From: a virus
Taxonomy: Duplodnaviria > Heunggongvirae > Uroviricota > Caudoviricetes
DNA: 64,000 bases
Reading direction: 5' to 3' (one strand)
Virus record (IMG/VR): IMGVR_UViG_2574180019_000006
Shown: in pieces, positions 4,036 to 62,887 of the stretch
Position numbering within the stretch: the stretch's first letter is position 1
Layout: the number at the start of each line of letters is the position of its first letter
Position numbers and translations under genes: made by a program
The notes under the pieces: model-generated
What the model was told of the DNA's origin: nothing
What the model saw: the letters and a program-made list of their open reading frames with translations, nothing else
The model's database searches: none

Positions 4036-4431
4036 ATGACCGTTAAACGCGAAAAACTGACAGTTGATGTTTACTATGCCTCTGAAACCGCCGAAGGTAA
4101 GAATGTGGCAAAAATTACCGTTGTTACGTACAACACCGAAACTGGTGCCGAAGTCCAGGCCAGTACGATCGTTCGTAAAGGTGATGCCTCCGGCGGCGAG
4201 TACGCGACTCAATACCAGTCCATTCTCGATGCAACTGACCCGCTGCTGCTGAAAATCGAGAACTACTTCCGCCAGGTTGATGAAGAGGTGTTTGAAACCA
4301 TGATGAATATGGTTAACACCGTATTCGCCTCCAGCCTGAATACCAACACTACCTGGATTGGTCAGTACGGCCTGCGCATTACCTCTGGCATTCCTGCCGA
4401 CACCTTAATCCCTGAAAGCGTATTCGCTTAA
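4036..4431 (+). CDS. hypothetical protein
   Basis: ATG at 4036 preceded by GGAGAG; followed by a terminator. Confidence 0.6.
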   Translation: MTVKREKLTVDVYYASETAEGKNVAKITVVTYNTETGAEVQASTIVRKGDASGGEYATQYQSILDATDPLLLKIENYFRQVDEEVFETMMNMVNTVFASSLNTNTTWIGQYGLRITSGIPADTLIPESVFA

Positions 4432-4440
4432 TCCTCTTTA

Positions 4441-4468
4441 AATGGCGCGTAAACCGCGCCATTTTATT
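4441..4468 (+). terminator. rho-independent terminator
   Basis: aatggcgcg-taaa-ccgcgccatt then ttatt. Confidence 0.6.
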
Positions 4469-4548
4469 AAGCCCGATAACAATTTGTTTTCTGCCTTATC
4501 TGATTTGTGAAAATGATTTCACTGAAGCAACTTAATAAGGAAACCATC

Positions 4549-4923
4549 ATGGGACTTGATATCTATATCGAGACACAGCCTAAAAACGATCTGAATAACG
4601 AGGCATCCAGAAAGCAGGTTGCTTACTTCCGTAAGTTCAATGCGCTCGTTGGGTGGATGGAGCGCAACGTAGGTGAAGTCGAAAATTGTGAGCTTTTAGA
4701 ATTAACGATGAATGACATTTGTTTTCTGAAGGCTCATTTGATGCACATAAACGAAAGTAATTGCGAAGAGTACTTGCCTACCCGGGAAGGTTTTTTCTTC
4801 GGCAGTCAGGAGTACGATGAAGGTTACTGGCATGATGTGGGGCAGTTGAAAGAGCTTGTGGAAGATCTGATTAAGAACCACGACTTTCACAATAACAGAC
4901 TGACCTTCTGCGCCTGGTGGTAA
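4549..4923 (+). CDS. hypothetical protein
   Basis: ATG at 4549 preceded by AAGGAAACC; track start 4507 lacks an RBS. Confidence 0.55.
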   Translation: MGLDIYIETQPKNDLNNEASRKQVAYFRKFNALVGWMERNVGEVENCELLELTMNDICFLKAHLMHINESNCEEYLPTREGFFFGSQEYDEGYWHDVGQLKELVEDLIKNHDFHNNRLTFCAWW

Positions 4924-5897: not shown

Positions 5898-6362
5898 GTA
5901 GAAAAAACATCGGGAAGCTGGTGGAATCCAACCAGCGGTTGTCGGACAGGTGAGCGGGGAAAATTATGATGACTTTCGTCACCTGAGACATCCAGATTTC
6001 TTTCGTAGCATAATCACATACGTGATTAAGTGGTGTGATTATGTGAAAAATCACGCGCACATAATACGCGAGCGGATACGGAACAAAACAAAATGCCGAT
6101 CCGCGCCGACAAATAAACGCGGATCATAAAGCAAGACTAAAAGCCAATGATTAACTATGCGCTATAACGCGTTTTAAGCGCGTTAATGTGTTAAGTAATG
6201 GGTATGTACTGGCAAGGATATAAAAGCGCGTCTATGGCGTTATTTTGGCGCTTATTTTTATGTTGTTGGAGTGAGTTAAAGACAATAAAAAACGCGCCAT
6301 CAATGGCGCGTTATTGTGGAAGTATTGGAAACGAAAAAAGCGCCCATAGTGGGCGCTCGATT

Positions 6363-6593
6363 TTATTTGTGTAAACTGATTTTAAATCCCATTTCTACGA
6401 ACGCTTTTAACATTAAAAATATATCAGCGTCGTTCACGTCTGCTTTTTTTCGCTCCTGGTCGCTCAATAAGTCAATTTTGCGCGTCGTTTCATCTATAAG
6501 CTCGACTACACGCCCAGCGTAACCAGCGATCCCAGCGATGCGATTAACATAATATTCATTATGGACGTTAACGCCAGCGATAAGAACAAACAT
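6363..6593 (-). CDS. hypothetical protein
   Basis: ORF in an AT-rich minus-strand block; no motif. Confidence 0.4.
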   Translation of the reverse strand: MFVLIAGVNVHNEYYVNRIAGIAGYAGRVVELIDETTRKIDLLSDQERKKADVNDADIFLMLKAFVEMGFKISLHK

Positions 6594-6614
6594 GATTAAG
6601 CTCCTTAAAAAAAA

Positions 6615-6818
6615 TTAAATAGAATTTTGAAGTTTTCCGATTAATGCGCTTAAGCGTAAGTATTCACGTTTGCGCTTGCAATCTCGCTTGCTGTTAAGCA
6701 AATCAGAAAACGTAAAATTTAATTGGTCGCGTTGCGCGATCAAATCGTCGATTAATTCCAGTTTATAAGCGCGATAATTTGCGCGATATTCTGCGCGGAT
6801 CTTGTCATAGCTGACCAT
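6615..6818 (-). CDS. hypothetical protein
   Basis: ATG at 6818 with AAAGGAG RBS; the track start 6863 would place a hairpin inside the ORF. Confidence 0.45.
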   Translation of the reverse strand: MVSYDKIRAEYRANYRAYKLELIDDLIAQRDQLNFTFSDLLNSKRDCKRKREYLRLSALIGKLQNSI

Positions 6819-6866
6819 CTTTAAAGCTCCTTTAAAGCGCCCATTGTGGGCGCTTGATTCCATTAA

Positions 6867-7526
6867 TTACGCTTTAAAAGCATCAGCTAAATAATTGTAG
6901 AAATCATTCTTGATAAAGCGATATTGCTGTGTACCAGCTTTGGCGCTCCCAGCTCCTTTGACTTTTTCAACAAGTCCGAGACGTTCGCAAAGATTGATCA
7001 ACTGGTTGGCTTGAGTATAGCCAGCGTCCAATTTAATTTCACACGCTTTTTTAGCTTCATTCATTAAATCGAAAACAGCGCCATTGGTGAACGTGTCGAT
7101 CTCGTCGTTAATCATATCGATTAAAGCGAATACACGAGATCCAGACATATCAGCGATGGAATAAATGCATTTACCAGATTTAATTGATTTAACCAGATAA
7201 ACCAGTTTTTCCAGAGAATAACTATTAGTCATTGCATCACGAAAAAATACTTCTGGCGCTTGTTTGCTTGCTTTAATCGCATAGTAGAAAACAGAGCACA
7301 ATTTTTCGTCTTCTACAGCGTTTACAACGTTGTTGATGAAGTAAGCTAGTTTAGTGGTCGCAGCTTGCATATTTGCTTTGTCTGCTTTGGTGTGCGTACC
7401 ATTTTTATAATGTTCGTTATATGTTTGAGTTGCCAGATCTGCTTTTTCGCGCAGCTCGTCGGATACAATAGATGCAGCTTCAATGATGGACTTTTTAGAA
7501 ATGATAATGTTAGCCATGATGGACAT
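6867..7526 (-). CDS. hypothetical protein (219 aa)
   Basis: ORF, AT-rich, no motif. Confidence 0.55.
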   Translation of the reverse strand: MSIMANIIISKKSIIEAASIVSDELREKADLATQTYNEHYKNGTHTKADKANMQAATTKLAYFINNVVNAVEDEKLCSVFYYAIKASKQAPEVFFRDAMTNSYSLEKLVYLVKSIKSGKCIYSIADMSGSRVFALIDMINDEIDTFTNGAVFDLMNEAKKACEIKLDAGYTQANQLINLCERLGLVEKVKGAGSAKAGTQQYRFIKNDFYNYLADAFKA

Positions 7527-7812
7527 CCTTACGAAAAATTAAAATGAATTTATTTTTTACTGTCGTTAGCTAGCTCGCTTTCGACGAGTTCAATTATCGA
7601 TACGTGAAAAAAGATTGCAAGTATTTTTTTTAAATTTTCTGCAGGGATGAAAGTCCTAGAAATAAAAGCGAGATCGTCGAAGGTGTTCCCTAAATAAATA
7701 ATCAATTCGGGCCTTTAACCTTATATATTTATACGGAGTGGCATCGAAAGAGTTTTAAATGAATGGCATGTAAAATAATAACCGGACTTAGCCGGTTATT
7801 ACCCTTATAGAT

Positions 7813-8337
7813 TTAAAATGGAAGGATTCGTTCAACCCAATCGAAGAAAACAAGTATTTTTCTGCCGTCTTCTAACTTAAGAGTGACCTGGCAAGCATCA
7901 ACGCCTCTTGACACCCCTTCTATTTCACGACCGTCTGTCATGTAGACCCTTATAGATTGGTCGTTTTGATAAGCCTTGCGACATATCGCAAAAAAGTCAC
8001 GGCGTGATGGCTGATTGTCAACATAGTCTGGATGTATTGTTAGCCTACCTTTGAACTCGCGAGCAATGTCATCGATTACACCTGATTCAATTGTGCTAAT
8101 GCGCTCAAGTGGGAGTCTTATACGATTTTCTTTATCATATGGAATCGGGCATAAATCTAGCTTATTGCGTGAAGGCATTGTCCCCTGAACGTACATGCAA
8201 AACACCTGACCGTCTTCAAGCGTGACTCTTACAGGAATGTTGTTCTTCCGCCAGAACATAAGTATGTTCTCAGCATGTTCGTAGTCTCGCGGCCAGACTT
8301 CAGCCGGTATGCCGTAGGTGATGTCCAATGTTCTCAT
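7813..8337 (-). CDS. hypothetical protein (174 aa)
   Basis: ORF whose start overlaps the upstream gene end (8334-8337). Confidence 0.55.
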   Translation of the reverse strand: MRTLDITYGIPAEVWPRDYEHAENILMFWRKNNIPVRVTLEDGQVFCMYVQGTMPSRNKLDLCPIPYDKENRIRLPLERISTIESGVIDDIAREFKGRLTIHPDYVDNQPSRRDFFAICRKAYQNDQSIRVYMTDGREIEGVSRGVDACQVTLKLEDGRKILVFFDWVERILPF

Positions 8338-8933
8338 TCTGATACTCTTAGAGGTGTTTTCAGCAATCCAAATTTAAATTCTTTATTACCAACGACCAAG
8401 AAGGGGACTTCAACATAGATTTTTTTATCGACGGATTTAGAGTTCGCTGTTTTCTTGATGTCGCGAACGATACGTTTTGTTGTGTTTTCATCAATAAACA
8501 ATACCTTCCCACTGGTATTCCCTTCAGTCTTAGCATAAGTGACAATAGGTTCTTCATTGCCAACTCTGATGTTCACTTGGCAACCCGTTGTAGCCATTTC
8601 ATCACAATAGAGTGTACCGTCTTGAATTTCTAAAACAATTCCAGATGGCTTCATGGCCTCGTTAGAGCTTACATTAGCGTTTTCTGGTACTGCGGTCCCG
8701 TTAATTTGCAACCGTAATCTTTCTGTTCCTGCATGAAGTATTGTTTCTTCTGCGTTATCTGAGAATCTATACCAGACTGGTTGAATCAGACCTCGTGATT
8801 TGTATTTTAGTACGTCTTCAGAAGTATACATGCTGTACGTTTTTTGCATGTCAGAGACGAAATCTGATAATGCGTTGGCGGAAAACGCCGGGAGGCATAT
8901 ACAAGCAAGGAGTAACGAAAGTTTCATTTTCAT
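8334..8933 (-). CDS. hypothetical secreted protein (signal peptide MKMKLSLLLACICLPAFSANA)
   Basis: N-terminal signal-peptide-like segment; track start 8948 is TTG, so I chose the in-frame ATG at 8933. Confidence 0.55.
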   Translation of the reverse strand: MKMKLSLLLACICLPAFSANALSDFVSDMQKTYSMYTSEDVLKYKSRGLIQPVWYRFSDNAEETILHAGTERLRLQINGTAVPENANVSSNEAMKPSGIVLEIQDGTLYCDEMATTGCQVNIRVGNEEPIVTYAKTEGNTSGKVLFIDENTTKRIVRDIKKTANSKSVDKKIYVEVPFLVVGNKEFKFGLLKTPLRVSE

Positions 8934-8948
8934 ATCATGATAATCCAA

Positions 8949-9437
8949 TTATTTAACATCACACTTTCTAAGTTTTTCTATTTGTTCTAATTTTTCATGA
9001 TCATCATTTAGATTTCCTTTGACTATCTCCGTTTCAAGTTTGCTGATTAGCATGTTAAGTGCGTTGTAGTTATTGCATTTTACTTTGTAGGCGTAGTATG
9101 ACCTTGTCCCTGGTTTTTGTACACCCATATCATTAAAGTTAGAGCTTAAAGTATAACCTTCAAGTTCAACCCCTTTTATTGTTGGAAGAATTATATTTAA
9201 TGGTTCTAATTTAAATGGGTAGATATAAATATGTGATATGAAGTACTCTTCTGAAGAGATTTTCTTCATGTCTTTTGTGATTGAAACTGAATATTTACGG
9301 TCCCGAGCGATATAAAATTTTGTACATTTGTACGGCTCTAAGTTGAATAGATAATATCTGTCTTTAAAAAGAACATCTTTTCCATGTGATATTTTATGTC
9401 GTAAAGAGTTAATTATTTTGTTTATAGAAATACTCAT
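8949..9437 (-). CDS. hypothetical protein (162 aa)
   Basis: ORF, AT-rich. Confidence 0.5.
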   Translation of the reverse strand: MSISINKIINSLRHKISHGKDVLFKDRYYLFNLEPYKCTKFYIARDRKYSVSITKDMKKISSEEYFISHIYIYPFKLEPLNIILPTIKGVELEGYTLSSNFNDMGVQKPGTRSYYAYKVKCNNYNALNMLISKLETEIVKGNLNDDHEKLEQIEKLRKCDVK

Positions 9438-9582
9438 CTACAGTATCCGACCTTAGTTATCAATTGAAAAGCCTACAAATATCGTTCAGCCAATCAAGAA
9501 ATTTTTTCAGCCGGAGGTATGTACTTCAAAAAATGTGATGAATGTCACATGCAGGTGCTCTCATACACCTGCATGTAGACTA

Positions 9583-10149
9583 TTAATCATTCAATAATCT
9601 ATATTTTCTTTTGATTAAATCTTCACCTTTTTTGGTGAACACAAAACCAAATTGCGATTTTTTGTTCAGCCTAAGGACTCTGTTATCCAACGCATCGGTT
9701 GATGGAATCAATGTTTGATCATCTATCCAATTAAGTAGCGTAAGAAAGTTCAGCAGCCTCAACGTTGTTGTGCGAAGCTCTTTCGATATATTTTCAATGC
9801 TGGCAATTCGTCTTTCTTTTTTCTCAGGTGGTACAGATAATTGTTCTTGAGGTTTCGTGGGTAGATAATCAATTTCGTTTGCTGAATCGAATGATATGTG
9901 TGGCGTAATTTTGCTAAAAAAGCCTTTCGCTGACTCACTTGATAATAAACCAGACCTATTCATATCGTTTGTTATTCTGTACAGGAGTGGACTGTGTTTC
10001 ATTTCAGGATAACGTTGATAAAAGTTAAGCAATTCAAAAGCAGCATTAGCACCAACAAGAAAATCAGAAGGATCGCTGACTTTCCAGAAAGAATGATTTT
10101 TCTTAGCGCCAGTGGTGTCAACAAATGATAATTCTTTTAACCAACTCAT
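9583..10149 (-). CDS. hypothetical protein
   Basis: ATG at 10149 with AAAGGAG RBS; the RBS is flanked by an 11-bp perfect inverted repeat. Confidence 0.5.
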   Translation of the reverse strand: MSWLKELSFVDTTGAKKNHSFWKVSDPSDFLVGANAAFELLNFYQRYPEMKHSPLLYRITNDMNRSGLLSSESAKGFFSKITPHISFDSANEIDYLPTKPQEQLSVPPEKKERRIASIENISKELRTTTLRLLNFLTLLNWIDDQTLIPSTDALDNRVLRLNKKSQFGFVFTKKGEDLIKRKYRLLND

Positions 10150-10214
10150 GATGTGCTCCTTTCTAACAAGTGAGCACATCATAGAATTAGTAGATAGGGG
10201 GTAAATATGAAATG

Positions 10215-10493
10215 TTACGGCAACCTGCTCAGTATTTCCTCTAGATCTTTTTTTGTCATATTGGAGTTCTCATAGATGCGCATGATTTTCTCACGCGTCT
10301 TAGCGGAAACCCCAACGGCAGATGTGACTTTGTCAAATTCAGCCATAGTCATCGTCTCCAGAATGGCATTGATAACTTCAGCCTTAGACATCTTGATTTT
10401 TTTCTCTTTGAGTTTTATTTGAAATTTTCCAAGTTTTTCATTGGCCTTATCAGACAATGCCACTTGGCAATAAGTTGTTTTCTTTTCGCTCAT
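10215..10493 (-). CDS. hypothetical small protein (92 aa)
   Basis: ORF immediately upstream of, and co-oriented with, the helicase. Confidence 0.5.
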   Translation of the reverse strand: MSEKKTTYCQVALSDKANEKLGKFQIKLKEKKIKMSKAEVINAILETMTMAEFDKVTSAVGVSAKTREKIMRIYENSNMTKKDLEEILSRLP

Positions 10494-10495
10494 AA

Positions 10496-12055
10496 CTAAT
10501 CTCGTTTCAGAACTCCAAAATCGAATGCGCCATCAACAGGCAATACACCTTCTGCAAAGCCAGGTGTGGTGTCGATGATGTGTTTTCGCTCATAAGAGTG
10601 AGACAACAGGTATTTGTTGCTAATGTCAATGAAATCAGTGATAAAACACACGTTTGCCTGATTCTTCTTGGCTCGTAAGCCACGACCGACACGTTGTCTC
10701 ATTTCAACTTCTGCTTTCCCACCACCAGCAAGAATGACCGCACCAACGCTTGGCACATCAACACCGACATCCAGAATAGTCGAGCCTATTAAAACATCTA
10801 TGTCGCCAGACGCTAAACTGTTCAGCTTTGCTTGCCTTGTCGACTGGTTCGATTCCCCATAAATGAAGTCAACTCTAAGGCCGGACTCTTTCATCATTTC
10901 CATCAGGATTTGCCCGTGGCGTTTAAGACGAACCAGAGTCATACAATTGAGAGAATGTTGCTTATAGAGCAATGCTTCGCGAACAATGGCCTCATTACGT
11001 CCCAAATTATACACGATCCCCAACTGATAAGCCTTTTGGTAGGCAGTGCTCATACCTACTCTAAAATTGAGGTGTTTGTTGGCAAGTTCTGCCTTGATTC
11101 TGGTCTCGTCCGGCTTGTAGGCAACTTTATGATAAAGGAAGTATGGCTTTGCCAGAATGCCTCTATCAATCAGGTACTTTTCCGTGACTTTTATTTCAAT
11201 TCGCCCGGCCACTGCCATCAGACGCATGTTGGCTTCCGTAGAATCCTTCATGAACGGCGTTGCCGTAAGCGCCAGGCGATAGTCTGCGTTCGCACATAAT
11301 CTGGCAATGTCATAGAAATTAGAGCCTGAAGACTCATGCGCCTCTTCCAGAATAAGAAGAGAGACACTTGAAAGGAAGCGTTTCACCAAGTCCCGACGTT
11401 TGAGGTGGTAGCTCTTCTTATCTGGAGTTGCATCGCGTGGTGGTTCTTCAAGGAAACTTGCCAGAGTTTGAACTGTAGCGACGTTGATATGTCGTGATAC
11501 CTGGAACTCACCCGAGCCAATGACTCCAACCTTTTGGTCTTTTAACCACGGTTCGCCATTTTCGGCGCGGTAGTCGATGGATCTCTGGAAGTTTTCGGCC
11601 ATCTGAAACATCAGAACAGAGCGGGTTGTTAAAAATAATGTCATTCGACCGATACGTGCAGCTGCTTTGCAGGCAACATTAGATTTCCCGCCACCAGTAG
11701 CGATCTGCGCAATCATCATTCCCTCTCGAACCAGTGTTTCCACAGTCTGATCCTGATATGCATAATCAGGATTGTATGGGAATGGGTTGACCGCCGGATT
11801 TGGCTTTCCAAGCGCCGGAGCTTTGTCTTTGCGGATATGAACACATTTGATGCCCGCCTTGTTCAAGTTCGCCGCTACAGGCTTGGCAAAGCCAGCAGGG
11901 AACGAGTTTTTACTCCAGTTGAACATCGTGCTTGTGCCCTTCCAGTCGCCAGTCTCGACTTCGTAGCTCAACATCTGTTGCACCAGTTGCTTTACCTTGT
12001 CATCTGCGCCAGAAATAAGTGCATTTACTGCGTTAGATACAATCCGAACAGTCAT
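10496..12055 (-). CDS. superfamily 2 (DEAD/DEAH-type) helicase
   Basis: Walker A ATGGGKS, motif II LILEEAHE, motif VI QRVGRGLR. Confidence 0.8.
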   Translation of the reverse strand: MTVRIVSNAVNALISGADDKVKQLVQQMLSYEVETGDWKGTSTMFNWSKNSFPAGFAKPVAANLNKAGIKCVHIRKDKAPALGKPNPAVNPFPYNPDYAYQDQTVETLVREGMMIAQIATGGGKSNVACKAAARIGRMTLFLTTRSVLMFQMAENFQRSIDYRAENGEPWLKDQKVGVIGSGEFQVSRHINVATVQTLASFLEEPPRDATPDKKSYHLKRRDLVKRFLSSVSLLILEEAHESSGSNFYDIARLCANADYRLALTATPFMKDSTEANMRLMAVAGRIEIKVTEKYLIDRGILAKPYFLYHKVAYKPDETRIKAELANKHLNFRVGMSTAYQKAYQLGIVYNLGRNEAIVREALLYKQHSLNCMTLVRLKRHGQILMEMMKESGLRVDFIYGESNQSTRQAKLNSLASGDIDVLIGSTILDVGVDVPSVGAVILAGGGKAEVEMRQRVGRGLRAKKNQANVCFITDFIDISNKYLLSHSYERKHIIDTTPGFAEGVLPVDGAFDFGVLKRD

Positions 12056-48075: not shown

Positions 48076-50655
<2,580 letters not shown>

Positions 50656-59880: not shown

Positions 59881-60771
59881 TTACTGATTATCTAGGTATG
59901 CTGTTAACTCATTTTTAATGATCAGTGAATATTCTAAAATCTCACCTAGTAAATACTCTGCTTTTTTAAAATGCCACCCCATAGAGCCTAATTTTTCTGA
60001 AGGTCTTTCTAACAACATTATAATATCGCTGTCTTGCTCTTTGGCAATGTATTGTCTTATTTCTCTCTCCCAATTATTTCTTGTCTTTCCACTTATTGAT
60101 GATTCATCCAAAACTTTGTTTATAAACTTTTCCGTGTCGGCGAACTTTCCTGCATTATGCACAATTGTATGTCTTAGCAACTCAATTAGAGTGATCTCGA
60201 AACGATAGTTTTTACCTATCTTGTTATTTATTTCTACGTCTCTGAAATTGGGTAATTTTCTTCTAAATACTTTCAGGAATGTTTTTAGTGATTTATTTTT
60301 TATCGCCTCGTAATAGGTTTCCATAGCTCCATTTTTATCAATCTGAACCTTTGGAAATTCACTAGGTGACCAAAAATGGTAATGTATGCTCACTGTATGG
60401 GCATATATTTTCTTAATATAATCTTCAAACAATTCAAAAGCTTCAGTTATAACCCATTGATATTGTTTGTTTTTTAACGCTTCGCATAATTTTATCTTCT
60501 CTGAGATATCTATTGTGCTATGCCCAATTCCAAATGTTGAACCTGTATATGGATTTGAGCATGTATGGTTTGTTAACGTTGTCCCGCATGTTATTGGGGG
60601 GGTATTATTAGCATCTAGAGTTTGTGCGTTTTCAAGTGTATGCTTAAATCGCTTTATGTTGTCTTTCGTTGTAACATTTATATGACCTAACAAGTCACAA
60701 CGCAAAATTATTTCGTTTCTTAATTCAGTGAATATGTTTTCAACAAAAGAACCTAGCGGGTTTTCAATCAT
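59881..60771 (-). CDS. hypothetical protein (296 aa), possibly HEPN-like
   Basis: AT-rich compared with flanking DNA; single Rx4H motif (LLRHTIVHNAG); no recombinase motifs. Confidence 0.5.
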   Translation of the reverse strand: MIENPLGSFVENIFTELRNEIILRCDLLGHINVTTKDNIKRFKHTLENAQTLDANNTPPITCGTTLTNHTCSNPYTGSTFGIGHSTIDISEKIKLCEALKNKQYQWVITEAFELFEDYIKKIYAHTVSIHYHFWSPSEFPKVQIDKNGAMETYYEAIKNKSLKTFLKVFRRKLPNFRDVEINNKIGKNYRFEITLIELLRHTIVHNAGKFADTEKFINKVLDESSISGKTRNNWEREIRQYIAKEQDSDIIMLLERPSEKLGSMGWHFKKAEYLLGEILEYSLIIKNELTAYLDNQ

Positions 60772-60946
60772 CTAAACCTCAACGAAAATCTTACCTATAA
60801 GACAGTCCTTAATGTAATCTATTTTCTCCACTACTTCAAATTACCTCACAATCTACCGATAGGTGACTACCTACTTACATACAAAGTTGATTTATAGTAT
60901 AGTCCCTCTGTTGCGTATTAGTATTTTTAAAGGCATTTGTTAAGTT

Positions 60947-61192
60947 ATGACGATCACTATCTACGGACGAGATAACTGCTCATACTGCAAACGTGCGGTC
61001 GAGCTGGCGAAGCAACTAAAGGGACATGGCTACGGTGATTATGAGTACATCGACATCACCACTGCCGGTATCGACAAGGAAAAACTAAGTGAAATTGTTG
61101 GTAAACCGGTAGAGACTATCCCCCAGGTGCTGATCGATGGCCAGCCGATTGGCGGATACACAGAACTGGCTGCATACGTCAGCACCCTCTGA
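60947..61192 (+). CDS. glutaredoxin
   Basis: CSYC active site in an 81-aa thioredoxin-fold-sized protein. Confidence 0.8.
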   Translation: MTITIYGRDNCSYCKRAVELAKQLKGHGYGDYEYIDITTAGIDKEKLSEIVGKPVETIPQVLIDGQPIGGYTELAAYVSTL

Positions 61193-61195
61193 TTT

Positions 61196-61225
61196 TAACG
61201 GCTCACAGGAGCCGTTTTTATTCCC
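61196..61225 (+). terminator. rho-independent terminator
   Basis: acggctc-acag-gagccgt then ttttatt. Confidence 0.55.
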
Positions 61226-61402
61226 ACCAAACTCACTCCCATTTCCCTTAAAATTCAAAAAACAACGTCAAAATGATTCCATACCTACTATGTATGGAAT
61301 CATTGCTGAAAATGAGTTACTTTTACTCTTGATCCTATAAGAATCTATGCCTAATATACTGTTTACTTATACAGTACATCGGCGTAACTCGGTGATTGTC
61401 AT

Positions 61403-62506
61403 ATGAAAAATAGCTTTGACAGAGCACGCGCTGCGGAGAACACCTCAAAAGAGGCGATAGAGTATCTCGAAAGAGCATCTCAAATGCAGGCCGTTATGAT
61501 CTCGCAGGTTAGCAATGACATGAGATTCTCGGACGCATTCATGTTATTCACTCGCTTATCTCTGCTGATAACCAGACGTCGGCCAGAGATCGCTGTTCAT
61601 TGTATTTTGATACATGTTTTGCCGCACATTGCCGATGTAAAAGTAAGTGACATTAATAGGTTCATGGTGAACCAACTGGTCAACCCACTAATACTGGATG
61701 GCAAAATTGTTATGGGCCGCCGCGTTTTCTCTCTGATGAAGCAGTTCCTTAGCTGGTGCGCCTTCCAGGGGATGATAGACGTGTCACCGTTAAACGATAT
61801 GTCACTTAACAAAGTTGCCGGTGGCGCAAAGCCCACACCTCGCGAGCGGAAGCTGACCGACGCAGAGGTATGGGTGTTCTGGAATATATGGGACTACTTC
61901 AATGTGTGCGCTGGTACAAAATGGGCGGCCAGGCTGTGTCTTGTATCAGCAAGACGACCTGACGAAGTACTGCGGGCTAAAAAAAGTGAGTTCAATCTTA
62001 AGCGTGGAGTTTGGAATCAAGGCAAGAGAAACAAGTCAGCACGTGAGCATTCGCTGCCTTTAAGCACATTAATGCGCACATGTATTGAAGAGTTGTTCGA
62101 ATACGGTAAAGGCAGCCAGTGGCTCGTGCCTTCGAATAAAAAAATCGGGAAAGACCTTCCTATGTCTAAAGTGGCAATAGCCCAGGCATTACGTCGTATT
62201 CTGGAACGACCAGAACTGATGGAGCTTGAGCCATTTACACCCCGAGACTTGCGCCGTACTGCGCGTAGTTACTTCCCAGCTTTAGGCATAAGCCAGGAGG
62301 TATCACGCAAAATCATGAACCACAGTCTTGAGGGGATAGATCGAGTCTACGACCGGCACGATTATATGGACGAGATGCGAGACGCCTTAGAAAGTTTCTC
62401 GACGTACATCGCATCAATCGTAGAGCAACCGGATTTAGACGAAATTGACCACAAATTCAAGGGAGATCGTCTATCAACAGAGCTTATTCGTGTAAATTTT
62501 TCATAG
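61403..62506 (+). CDS. tyrosine site-specific recombinase
   Basis: C-terminal RDLRRT...NHSLEG...VYDRHDY fits the R..HxxR..Y catalytic pattern. Confidence 0.7.
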   Translation: MKNSFDRARAAENTSKEAIEYLERASQMQAVMISQVSNDMRFSDAFMLFTRLSLLITRRRPEIAVHCILIHVLPHIADVKVSDINRFMVNQLVNPLILDGKIVMGRRVFSLMKQFLSWCAFQGMIDVSPLNDMSLNKVAGGAKPTPRERKLTDAEVWVFWNIWDYFNVCAGTKWAARLCLVSARRPDEVLRAKKSEFNLKRGVWNQGKRNKSAREHSLPLSTLMRTCIEELFEYGKGSQWLVPSNKKIGKDLPMSKVAIAQALRRILERPELMELEPFTPRDLRRTARSYFPALGISQEVSRKIMNHSLEGIDRVYDRHDYMDEMRDALESFSTYIASIVEQPDLDEIDHKFKGDRLSTELIRVNFS

Positions 62507-62887
62507 AGACTTTATGGCCTCAACAACCTTTTGTGATGCGCCTTTCTCTTTACCGAATCGCTCGTTATATGCAGCAAGAACCTGTTTTTCGTCCTCGTTA
62601 AGAGGAGCGGTGCCTTCTTTGTATAAAAATGCTGCGAGTTCAGGTTGGCGTTCTTCCAGCACCATCATCATAAGACGACTTGGCTCAATACCCAGCGCCA
62701 GCGCCAACGGACGAACCTTATCGATAGGCAAAGGAATTTTGCCACTTTTAATTAAAGAAAGGTTGTTGGCATTTTTATAACCAATAAGTCTGGCTATTTG
62801 GGCCTGACTCATAGGTGAGGATTCAATCAGCCCTGCGATAAAAGCAGCATAGCGACTTTCTATAAATTCAATCTTGTTGTCAGACAT
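62501..62887 (-). CDS. XRE-family helix-turn-helix regulator
   Basis: HTH segment SQAQIARLIGYKNANNLSLIKSG. Confidence 0.7.
   Translation of the reverse strand: MSDNKIEFIESRYAAFIAGLIESSPMSQAQIARLIGYKNANNLSLIKSGKIPLPIDKVRPLALALGIEPSRLMMMVLEERQPELAAFLYKEGTAPLNEDEKQVLAAYNERFGKEKGASQKVVEAIKSL

Follow-up and report, generated by a model that had tools for sequence, protein, structure and literature searches.

A cluster of four small genes on the minus strand (positions 7813-10149) of a 64,000-nucleotide stretch of viral DNA, IMG/VR record IMGVR_UViG_2574180019_000006 (the whole stretch is called the window), raises the question of whether it is a block of cargo acquired as a unit and what it does for its carrier. 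A preliminary description had suggested that the four genes are horizontally acquired cargo, possibly serving superinfection exclusion, defence or anti-defence. The 7.5 kb around the locus are 100% identical to E. coli plasmid NZ_CP070135.1, 95-97% identical to the Escherichia phages CMS-2020a, Cyrano and PhiR41_1, and ~79% identical to Salmonella phage SSU5. These identities identify the window as an SSU5/pHCM2-type phage-plasmid of E. coli. The interval is a variable slot, a recombination hotspot, between a helicase-E operon and the core gene A, and the slot in the window holds three independently exchangeable accessory genes in the fixed order D, C, B. Anatomy and function together are read as a lysogenic-conversion, surface-remodelling locus in a variable phage-plasmid slot, to which a probability of about 0.5 is assigned. 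The surface-remodelling function itself is proposed with low confidence.

The open reading frames (ORFs) of the four co-oriented genes were found on the minus strand at the lengths first described. Gene A (7813-8337, 174 residues) is a FljA-family protein and a core gene. Gene B (8334-8933, 199 residues) encodes a predicted Sec-exported periplasmic β-sandwich protein processed by signal peptidase I (SPase I). Gene C (8949-9437, 162 residues) encodes a cytoplasmic, basic protein (isoelectric point 9.3) that is a sequence ORFan, grouped below with c12 and c13 in a hotspot family, and gene D (9583-10149, 188 residues) encodes a basic cytoplasmic protein that is semi-conserved in the phage-plasmid family. 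The neighbouring 92-residue gene E (10215-10493, minus strand; phrog_1466) is a core gene and the left border of the hotspot. A superfamily 2 (SF2) helicase of 519 residues (10496-12055, minus strand; phrog_16), also a core gene, heads the minus-strand unit; its Pfam ResIII, DEAD and Helicase_C matches agree with the earlier assignment. The RefSeq labels of the four genes in NZ_CP070135.1 are 'transcriptional regulator' and three hypothetical proteins, and Pfam, PHROGs, PADLOC and NCBIfam scans of nine local proteins named only A and the helicase.

The slot was defined with 80 helicase-containing IMG/VR loci; typing was by tblastn and ORF clustering. The order helicase, E, variable segment, A was found in 75 of these, while the remaining five have a contig that stops short of A or no detected E. 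The architecture counts refer to a set of 80 that consists of the 75 syntenic loci and five others (L004-L008) fetched with B and C homologues. The gap between E and A ranges from 116 to 2944 bp and holds zero to four genes in at least 10 architectures: empty, c0-A, B-A, D-B-A, D-C-B-A, D-c12-c11-A, c13-c0-A, c8(-)-A, D-c8(-)-A and D-HNH-c8(-)-A. The SSU5_122-type 140-residue lipoprotein c0 (phrog_890) occupies 38 of the 80 loci, D 25, B (phrog_18942) 17 and C 8. The remaining slot genes are c8, a 266-residue lipoprotein on the opposite strand (phrog_2320; 7-8 loci), c11, a 118-residue secreted protein (phrog_2320; 7 loci), c12 (6 loci), c13 (4 loci) and an HNH endonuclease (1 locus, L022). 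Gene order is constant: D comes first, followed by a C-like gene, the gene for an exported protein and, last, A. Several architectures sit on backbones with 98-99% identical helicases, and the alleles of A and E are reshuffled too, as in L009, where B is 99% and A 79% identical. A divergent D-C-B-A set in L068 (43-67% identity) indicates that the arrangement is old.

The position of the exported protein is filled by three unrelated families, namely B (phrog_18942), c0 (phrog_890, annotated 'lipoprotein') and c8/c11 (phrog_2320). The Cyrano-type lipoprotein c8 and the Klebsiella-type secreted protein c11 have a common phrog_2320 domain with the motif LLDPDS..F...N.YGAYTG (for example L022:10870-11670(-) and L083:7061-7411). 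The closest described arrangement is that of SSU5_121 and SSU5_122 in phage SSU5 ('transcriptional repressor' and 'lipoprotein'), which has the same order of helicase, 92-residue gene, exported protein and FljA-like gene; this architecture is the commonest in the family (34 of 80 loci). It differs from the window in that its lipoprotein (phrog_890, weak DUF2846) is unrelated to B and in that SSU5 has neither D nor C. A direct comparison of B with the SSU5 lipoprotein found them unrelated.

The wider distribution gives the same division. Searches of PLSDB by tblastn located A in 835 plasmids, E in 790, D in 179, B in 65 and C in 23, so the presence/absence survey called for earlier finds B, C and D to be patchy and A to be core. 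Presence/absence polymorphism among close relatives, as for a prophage moron or lysogenic-conversion cassette, is a property of B, C and D. The cargo proposal stands for B and C and, to a lesser degree, for D as accessory, patchily distributed genes, and falls for A, a core gene of a known family. The notion of a single four-gene module is likewise untenable, because B, C and D occur in differing combinations and A is core.

These combinations also bear on the idea that the cargo is a novel anti-phage defence or abortive-infection system of several genes, made up of C and B and perhaps D. Such a system would account for AT-rich, variable genes in a hotspot. In the sampled loci C never occurs without D and B, the version at ~50% identity in L068 included, which counts in favour of the idea; D and B, however, each occur without C and without each other, and the architectures B-A, D-B-A and D-c8-A break up the set. 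No protein matches any defence model of PADLOC-DB 2.0, and the earlier suggestion of a possible defence role gains nothing from that collection: A, B, C and E have no match, D has one chance-level match (SspC, E 0.028, 10 bits), and the helicase matches generic helicase models only. B, C and D have no enzymatic motif, and B is predicted to be periplasmic and to lack a membrane anchor. The known defence systems of SSU5-type elements are named families (10.1101/2025.09.12.675607), and the families reported there are absent from the slot in the 80 loci. Because the parts assort independently and have no PADLOC match, a dedicated defence system is considered improbable.

Composition separates A from the other three genes. 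The preliminary figure of about one third G+C fits C (29.4%) and D (35.6%); B has 39.5%, and A, with 44.2%, lies at the 30th percentile of the window (mean 45.8%) and is ordinary. C is the most AT-rich 500-nt stretch of the 64-kb window. The AT-rich composition expected of a prophage moron or lysogenic-conversion cassette is thus seen in C, D and B and not in A, and A alone is a conserved component of ordinary composition. The AT-rich tract extends over ~6000-10500 and takes in core genes, so composition alone is no mark of cargo.

Ratios of nonsynonymous to synonymous substitution rates (dN/dS) were calculated against the ~80%-identical module in L004 and are 0.12 for both D and B, 0.24 for A and 0.33 for C, compared to 0.018 for the helicase. 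Values of 0.12-0.33 show that all four are real genes under purifying selection. The lack of family matches for B, C and D, the poor Shine-Dalgarno sequence of C and the annotation of C as 106 residues only would suit decaying or spurious ORFs in an AT-rich spacer. The dN/dS values effectively refute this explanation, which is scarcely credible given full-length orthologues at 40-57% identity in other genera and, in B, an invariant Cys pair and a conserved signal peptide.

The four genes had been described as carrying no assignable motif, which does not apply to A, an unambiguous FljA-family protein. A matches Pfam PF03614 (FljA, repressor of phase-1 flagellin; Flag1_repress) with E 3e-80 and 268 bits (cutoff 24), and its residues 5-171 align to profile positions 1-170 of 170, the full length. 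It also belongs to phrog_1444, 'transcriptional repressor' (E 4e-98). The 835 PLSDB plasmids include 345 from Klebsiella, 229 from Escherichia, 92 from Enterobacter, 62 from Yersinia and 60 from Salmonella, and the match covers at least 80% of the protein in 826 of them. A is present in 243 of 5426 complete E. coli genomes and is plasmid-borne every time; blastn of these genomes detected no chromosomal copy. The entire interval 7700-10250 occurs in only 36 complete E. coli genomes. By these sequence matches, A and the 92-residue E belong to the core gene set of the entire SSU5/pHCM2/pMT1 supergroup.

Proteins of the FljA type keep fliC mRNA from being translated, and E. coli becomes non-motile when it carries fljA on a plasmid (PMC2652032). 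A resembles Salmonella FljA of the fljBA operon and fljA(z66) of pBSSB1 in its full-length profile match, in its place as the last gene of a small operon behind a gene for an exported protein and, as on pBSSB1, in its location on an extrachromosomal element (PMC2652032). It differs in that the upstream gene is not flagellin but B, which has no flagellin match, or a lipoprotein gene in sister elements. A is also a core gene of a phage-plasmid family that lives in non-motile hosts as well, and its RNA target is putative. Klebsiella, Y. pestis and Shigella are non-motile. A is kept at 67-78% identity in plasmids of such hosts, which suggests that it has an additional or different RNA target beyond flagellin mRNA. 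The C terminus of A gives weak Hfq/LSM matches (E 6e-4, below the gathering cutoff). An internal Sm-like repeat that looked suggestive by eye was not significant (hhalign probability 3.5%).

A terminator-type hairpin follows A (7772-7805, minus strand; -15.3 kcal/mol, z score -2.8). It consists of a 14-bp stem, AAUAACCGG..CCGGUUAUU, then AUUUUA, and would end the C-B-A unit. The ~45-nt terminator region (7769-7815) is the sole part of 7700-10250 common to most E. coli SSU5-like plasmids (96-98% identity). It is kept even where A itself is only ~78% identical and may be a recombination boundary.

The distribution of A also fits a locus that regulates the element itself. A would then control phage-plasmid genes post-transcriptionally, for instance in the lysis-lysogeny or copy-number decision, the helicase/partition region would have D as its gated regulator, and B and C would be ancillary. 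A is core and well conserved in plasmids of non-motile hosts, its C terminus has the weak Hfq/LSM matches, and ParB-like partition genes adjoin the region. The co-orientation of D with helicase-E and the conserved structured RNA that brackets D, described below, point the same way. D is absent from ~78% of the family, however, and B and C from more than 90%, so these are not essential regulators, and a protein that is exported is unlikely to regulate plasmid functions. Regulation of the element itself by A and D has to be taken seriously as a rival; the explanation as a whole is judged unlikely.

The description of the 199-residue protein as secreted is borne out for B. A Sec-type signal peptide with n-, h- and c-regions is predicted (MKMKLSLLLACICLPAFSANA, cleaved before LSD), and the cleavage region FSANALSD with its A-x-A site for SPase I is kept in the family alignment. 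Hydropathy averaged by the Kyte-Doolittle method over 15 residues peaks at 2.23 at residue 5. The Cys in the signal h-region is not conserved in the family, so B is not a lipoprotein; two other Cys residues are invariant. B is predicted from these features to be exported to the periplasm/envelope without a membrane anchor. The AlphaFold2 model of B is a confident β-sandwich with one helix (residues 70-195), and the conserved N-terminal 45 mature residues lie outside the model. Its structural neighbours are uncharacterised proteins or generic β-sandwiches, and sequence searches returned no match in Pfam at E <= 1 and none in the PDB. IalB (invasion-associated locus B, PDB 3dtd) differs from B, with an identity of 10%, a Foldseek similarity that is only generically immunoglobulin-like and no sequence-profile match of B to the IalB family PF06776 (Pfam, E <= 1). 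Among the 65 PLSDB plasmids with B, 27 carry it at 51-57% identity. The stop codon of B overlaps the start of A (ATGA), and this overlap is kept in Klebsiella orthologues; B is probably coupled translationally to A.

Envelope proteins of prophage morons and superinfection exclusion include the lipoproteins Llp of T5 and Cor. The exported proteins of the slot are like these in being small, in occupying a variable AT-rich slot of a temperate element that ends in a terminator-type hairpin of its own, and in varying in presence among near-identical backbones. B differs from the exclusion lipoproteins in having an SPase I signal peptide and no lipobox. By analogy, exclusion at the envelope is a better fit than defence or anti-defence for a protein exported to the periplasm, and superinfection exclusion is a plausible candidate for the most likely payoff of the locus.

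C is the most restricted of the accessory genes. A word-index search of 5.8e9 proteins with B, C and D returned close Enterobacteriaceae relatives only, all hypothetical or unnamed, with only two close clusters for C; this search missed 40%-identical D orthologues that tblastn found later. An exhaustive HMMER search with C of 1.84e9 representatives retrieved its own cluster only, and neither C nor a C-superfamily profile matched the PDB by sequence. One of the 23 PLSDB copies, from Salmonella, is 53.5% identical over residues 1-159. The RefSeq/Prokaryotic Genome Annotation Pipeline call of C comprises 106 residues only (start M57). The 162-residue frame is favoured because the Salmonella homologue aligns over 1-159 and the PHROG has 162 positions.

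Profile comparison places C in a wider hotspot family. The hhalign probability is 95.6% (E 1e-8) for C and c12 and 83.5% for C and c13, and PHROG cross-hits independently support the link among the three. Their mutual identity is ~20%, and their common core of ~80 residues reads IxIYPF..L......G..L....LSSNF ... YGYS.K ... L..LI..L. The C position of L022 (L022:9614-10744; IMG/VR contig 3300015177_000008) is occupied by the 377-residue HNH endonuclease, which matches HNH PF01844 with E 3e-6 and has weak PADLOC HNH and type IV restriction matches. Its N-terminal residues 18-183 match the c13 PHROG (E 2e-4). A nuclease in this position with a weakly C-like N terminus counts in favour of a defence system. 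McrA-like nucleases that join a sensor domain to HNH resemble the L022 protein, with its HNH domain and c13-like N-terminal region. They differ from C, which has no nuclease domain and whose relation to the HNH protein is weak. The HNH variant leaves room for a nucleic-acid-directed role of the C-like domain, which may bind nucleic acid.

D follows E directly in every case. Of its 179 PLSDB copies, 78 are at least 95% and 100 are ~40% identical to the protein in the window, from Escherichia, Klebsiella, Enterobacter and Cronobacter, and the gene in Klebsiella loci is a positional orthologue at 40% identity. D is present in ~22% of the phage-plasmid family, is tied to the helicase-E transcription unit and was seen only in SSU5-like phages. 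A 12-member family profile of D had a best PDB match of E 0.34 to an unrelated protein, and a Pfam scan of the 12 members gave nothing relevant. The AlphaFold2 model of D from a shallow alignment had a mean predicted local distance difference test score of 42, too poor for a fold search. A by-eye idea that the D C terminus is a KilAC/ANT-type winged helix was unsupported by the Pfam and PDB profile scans.

Inverted repeats had been noted at both ends of D, and both fold far beyond chance. In the 5' hairpin (10140-10191, minus strand; -28.5 kcal/mol, z score -7.5), the complete Shine-Dalgarno sequence of D (AAGGAG) and its AUG are base-paired. The 3' hairpin (9547-9576, minus strand; z score -5.7), with a stem of 12 bp and, after it, a small hairpin and a T-run, is a putative terminator or transcript-end element. 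Alignment of 12 distinct 3' hairpin sequences shows 98.5% of cells paired with compensatory changes in 8 of 11 pairs; 0 of 500 shuffles reach the real value, and slid controls are 17-47% paired. Both hairpins are kept, with compensatory changes, in relatives whose D is only 40% identical. The inner stem of the 5' hairpin (TGTGCTC/GAGCACA) is mostly invariant, with two compensatory pairs, and the outer stem covaries with D codons 2-4; the clade with the 40%-identical D shows a G:C to C:G swap in this hairpin. An Rfam scan of the region gave no match, and a generic repeat search of the region found nothing beyond short chance repeats.

Three loci without D (L052, L042 and L056), whose slot is empty or holds other cargo, likewise carry the TGTGCTC..GAGCACA hairpin directly behind E. 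Its presence in D-less elements indicates that the 5' hairpin belongs to the end of the helicase-E unit and that the start of D is built into it. In other lineages a different GC-rich hairpin takes this position after E. The upstream in-frame ATG of D, which would give a 199-residue form, is not conserved in the Klebsiella clade, and this supports the 188-residue start. A DNA operator was considered for the 5' hairpin and is less likely, given a loop of variable length (13-16 nt) and covarying stems. Sequence-specific recognition may still take place at the invariant TGTGCTC/GAGCACA core.

The hairpin also weakens the idea of C and D as anti-defence proteins that inhibit host immunity and whose early expression comes from the helicase side. 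Both proteins are small, basic, fast-evolving and lineage-restricted and lie beside early/replication genes, and the strong diversification of the C family (C, c12 and c13 at ~20% identity) is what an arms race would give. A predicted strong block of D translation would be odd for an early counter-defence protein, however, and nothing similar with an annotated function was found in PHROGs. This explanation is regarded as very improbable.

Terminator-type hairpins follow both D and A, and the region between D and C (9438-9546, minus strand) has a T-run after the hairpins and the motif CCTCCGGCTGAAAAAA..TCTTGAT, which is kept across clades with different downstream genes. A weak promoter for C-B-A may lie in 9438-9546.

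The lysogenic-conversion, surface-remodelling reading joins these elements as follows. Helicase, E and D would form one transcription unit ending at the covarying hairpin and T-run 3' of D. Translation of D, a tightly gated regulator-type protein, would be silenced by the hairpin over its Shine-Dalgarno sequence and AUG until this is opened or cleaved. C, B and A would make up the second unit, which would extend to the terminator behind A and in which B and A would be coupled translationally. A would be an RNA-binding translational repressor like FljA that turns flagellin off in motile hosts and acts on another target in non-motile ones. B would work in the periplasm or envelope, as would the unrelated lipoproteins and secreted proteins that take its place in sister elements, and would most likely block a receptor or DNA entry for superinfecting phages. 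C, whose domain also turns up, with weak statistics, in fusion with an HNH nuclease, may bind nucleic acid. The surface-remodelling component of this reading is put forward because unrelated exported proteins swap at one position and are coupled to a FljA-type repressor.

Several findings weigh against it. A is equally conserved in Klebsiella, Yersinia pestis and Shigella plasmids, and its retention in non-motile hosts rules out flagellin repression as its general role. Searches of Pfam, NCBIfam, PADLOC and, by sequence, the PDB gave no match for B, C or D. B in particular shows no homology to characterised exclusion proteins in PHROGs, Pfam and NCBIfam and no sequence or fold similarity to them. 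Statistics for a link of the HNH protein to the C-like domain are weak (hhalign probability 10-46%, PHROG E 2e-4). A sigma-70 scan detected no consensus promoter upstream of C for the C-B-A unit, and the 8 promoter-like matches in the region compare with 10.1 expected from shuffles. The literature searched contains no discussion of this locus and no link of SSU5/pHCM2 elements to fljA.

The locus as it stands is an ordinary accessory hotspot of hypothetical proteins. Its genes are already present, unannotated, in hundreds of public plasmids, and its kind, the phage accessory hotspot, is familiar. The new details are of modest weight: covarying hairpins, a C-like family and a core homologue of FljA in non-motile hosts. 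A far-reaching version of the surface-remodelling proposal would make the locus a new host-surface control operon. In it a core Sm/Hfq-like RNA-binding repressor of the FljA family with targets beyond flagellin would be coupled translationally to exported effectors that can replace one another (B, c0, c8/c11) and to a C-like module that diversifies and binds nucleic acid. Jointly these would exclude competing phages or plasmids, and D would be an RNA-gated switch; this version is rated a long shot.

Phage-plasmids of the SSU5/pHCM2 type occur commonly in clinical E. coli, Shigella, Klebsiella, Salmonella Typhi and Yersinia pestis, and the present one carries blaCTX-M. The locus bears on the effects that these elements have on their hosts during lysogeny. 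A core FljA-type regulator should silence flagellin in motile hosts, yet it is kept in non-motile ones. The slot swaps exported proteins between otherwise identical backbones, and two covarying hairpins appear to gate accessory gene D. Should the exported proteins turn out to be exclusion factors, the slot would account in part for the incompatibility and host range of these elements.

Features outside the slot were recorded as well. The helicase had been called DEAH-type; its motif II (in 10496-12055) is LEEAH, with EEAH at the diagnostic position, and is of the DExH type. Its moderate PADLOC PbeA matches (E 3e-23) probably reflect generic SF2 similarity. An AT-rich island at 59881-62887 contains a 296-residue minus-strand ORF (59881-60771) without NCBIfam or PADLOC match and, near it, a weakly integrase-like 367-residue ORF (61403-62506) and a 128-residue ORF with a weak 'control protein' match. 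The annotation of the identical RefSeq plasmid, with coordinates converted, places an IS200/IS605-family tnpA (IS200C) at ~4121-4579. Another AT-rich island, at 47.9-49.9 kb, is an ISEcp1-like insertion sequence. At 48262-50655 on the plus strand, an IS1380-family transposase (ISEcp1-like, 420 residues) lies directly upstream of a 291-residue CTX-M family extended-spectrum β-lactamase, which scores 627 bits against the NCBIfam blaCTX-M model (cutoff 570).

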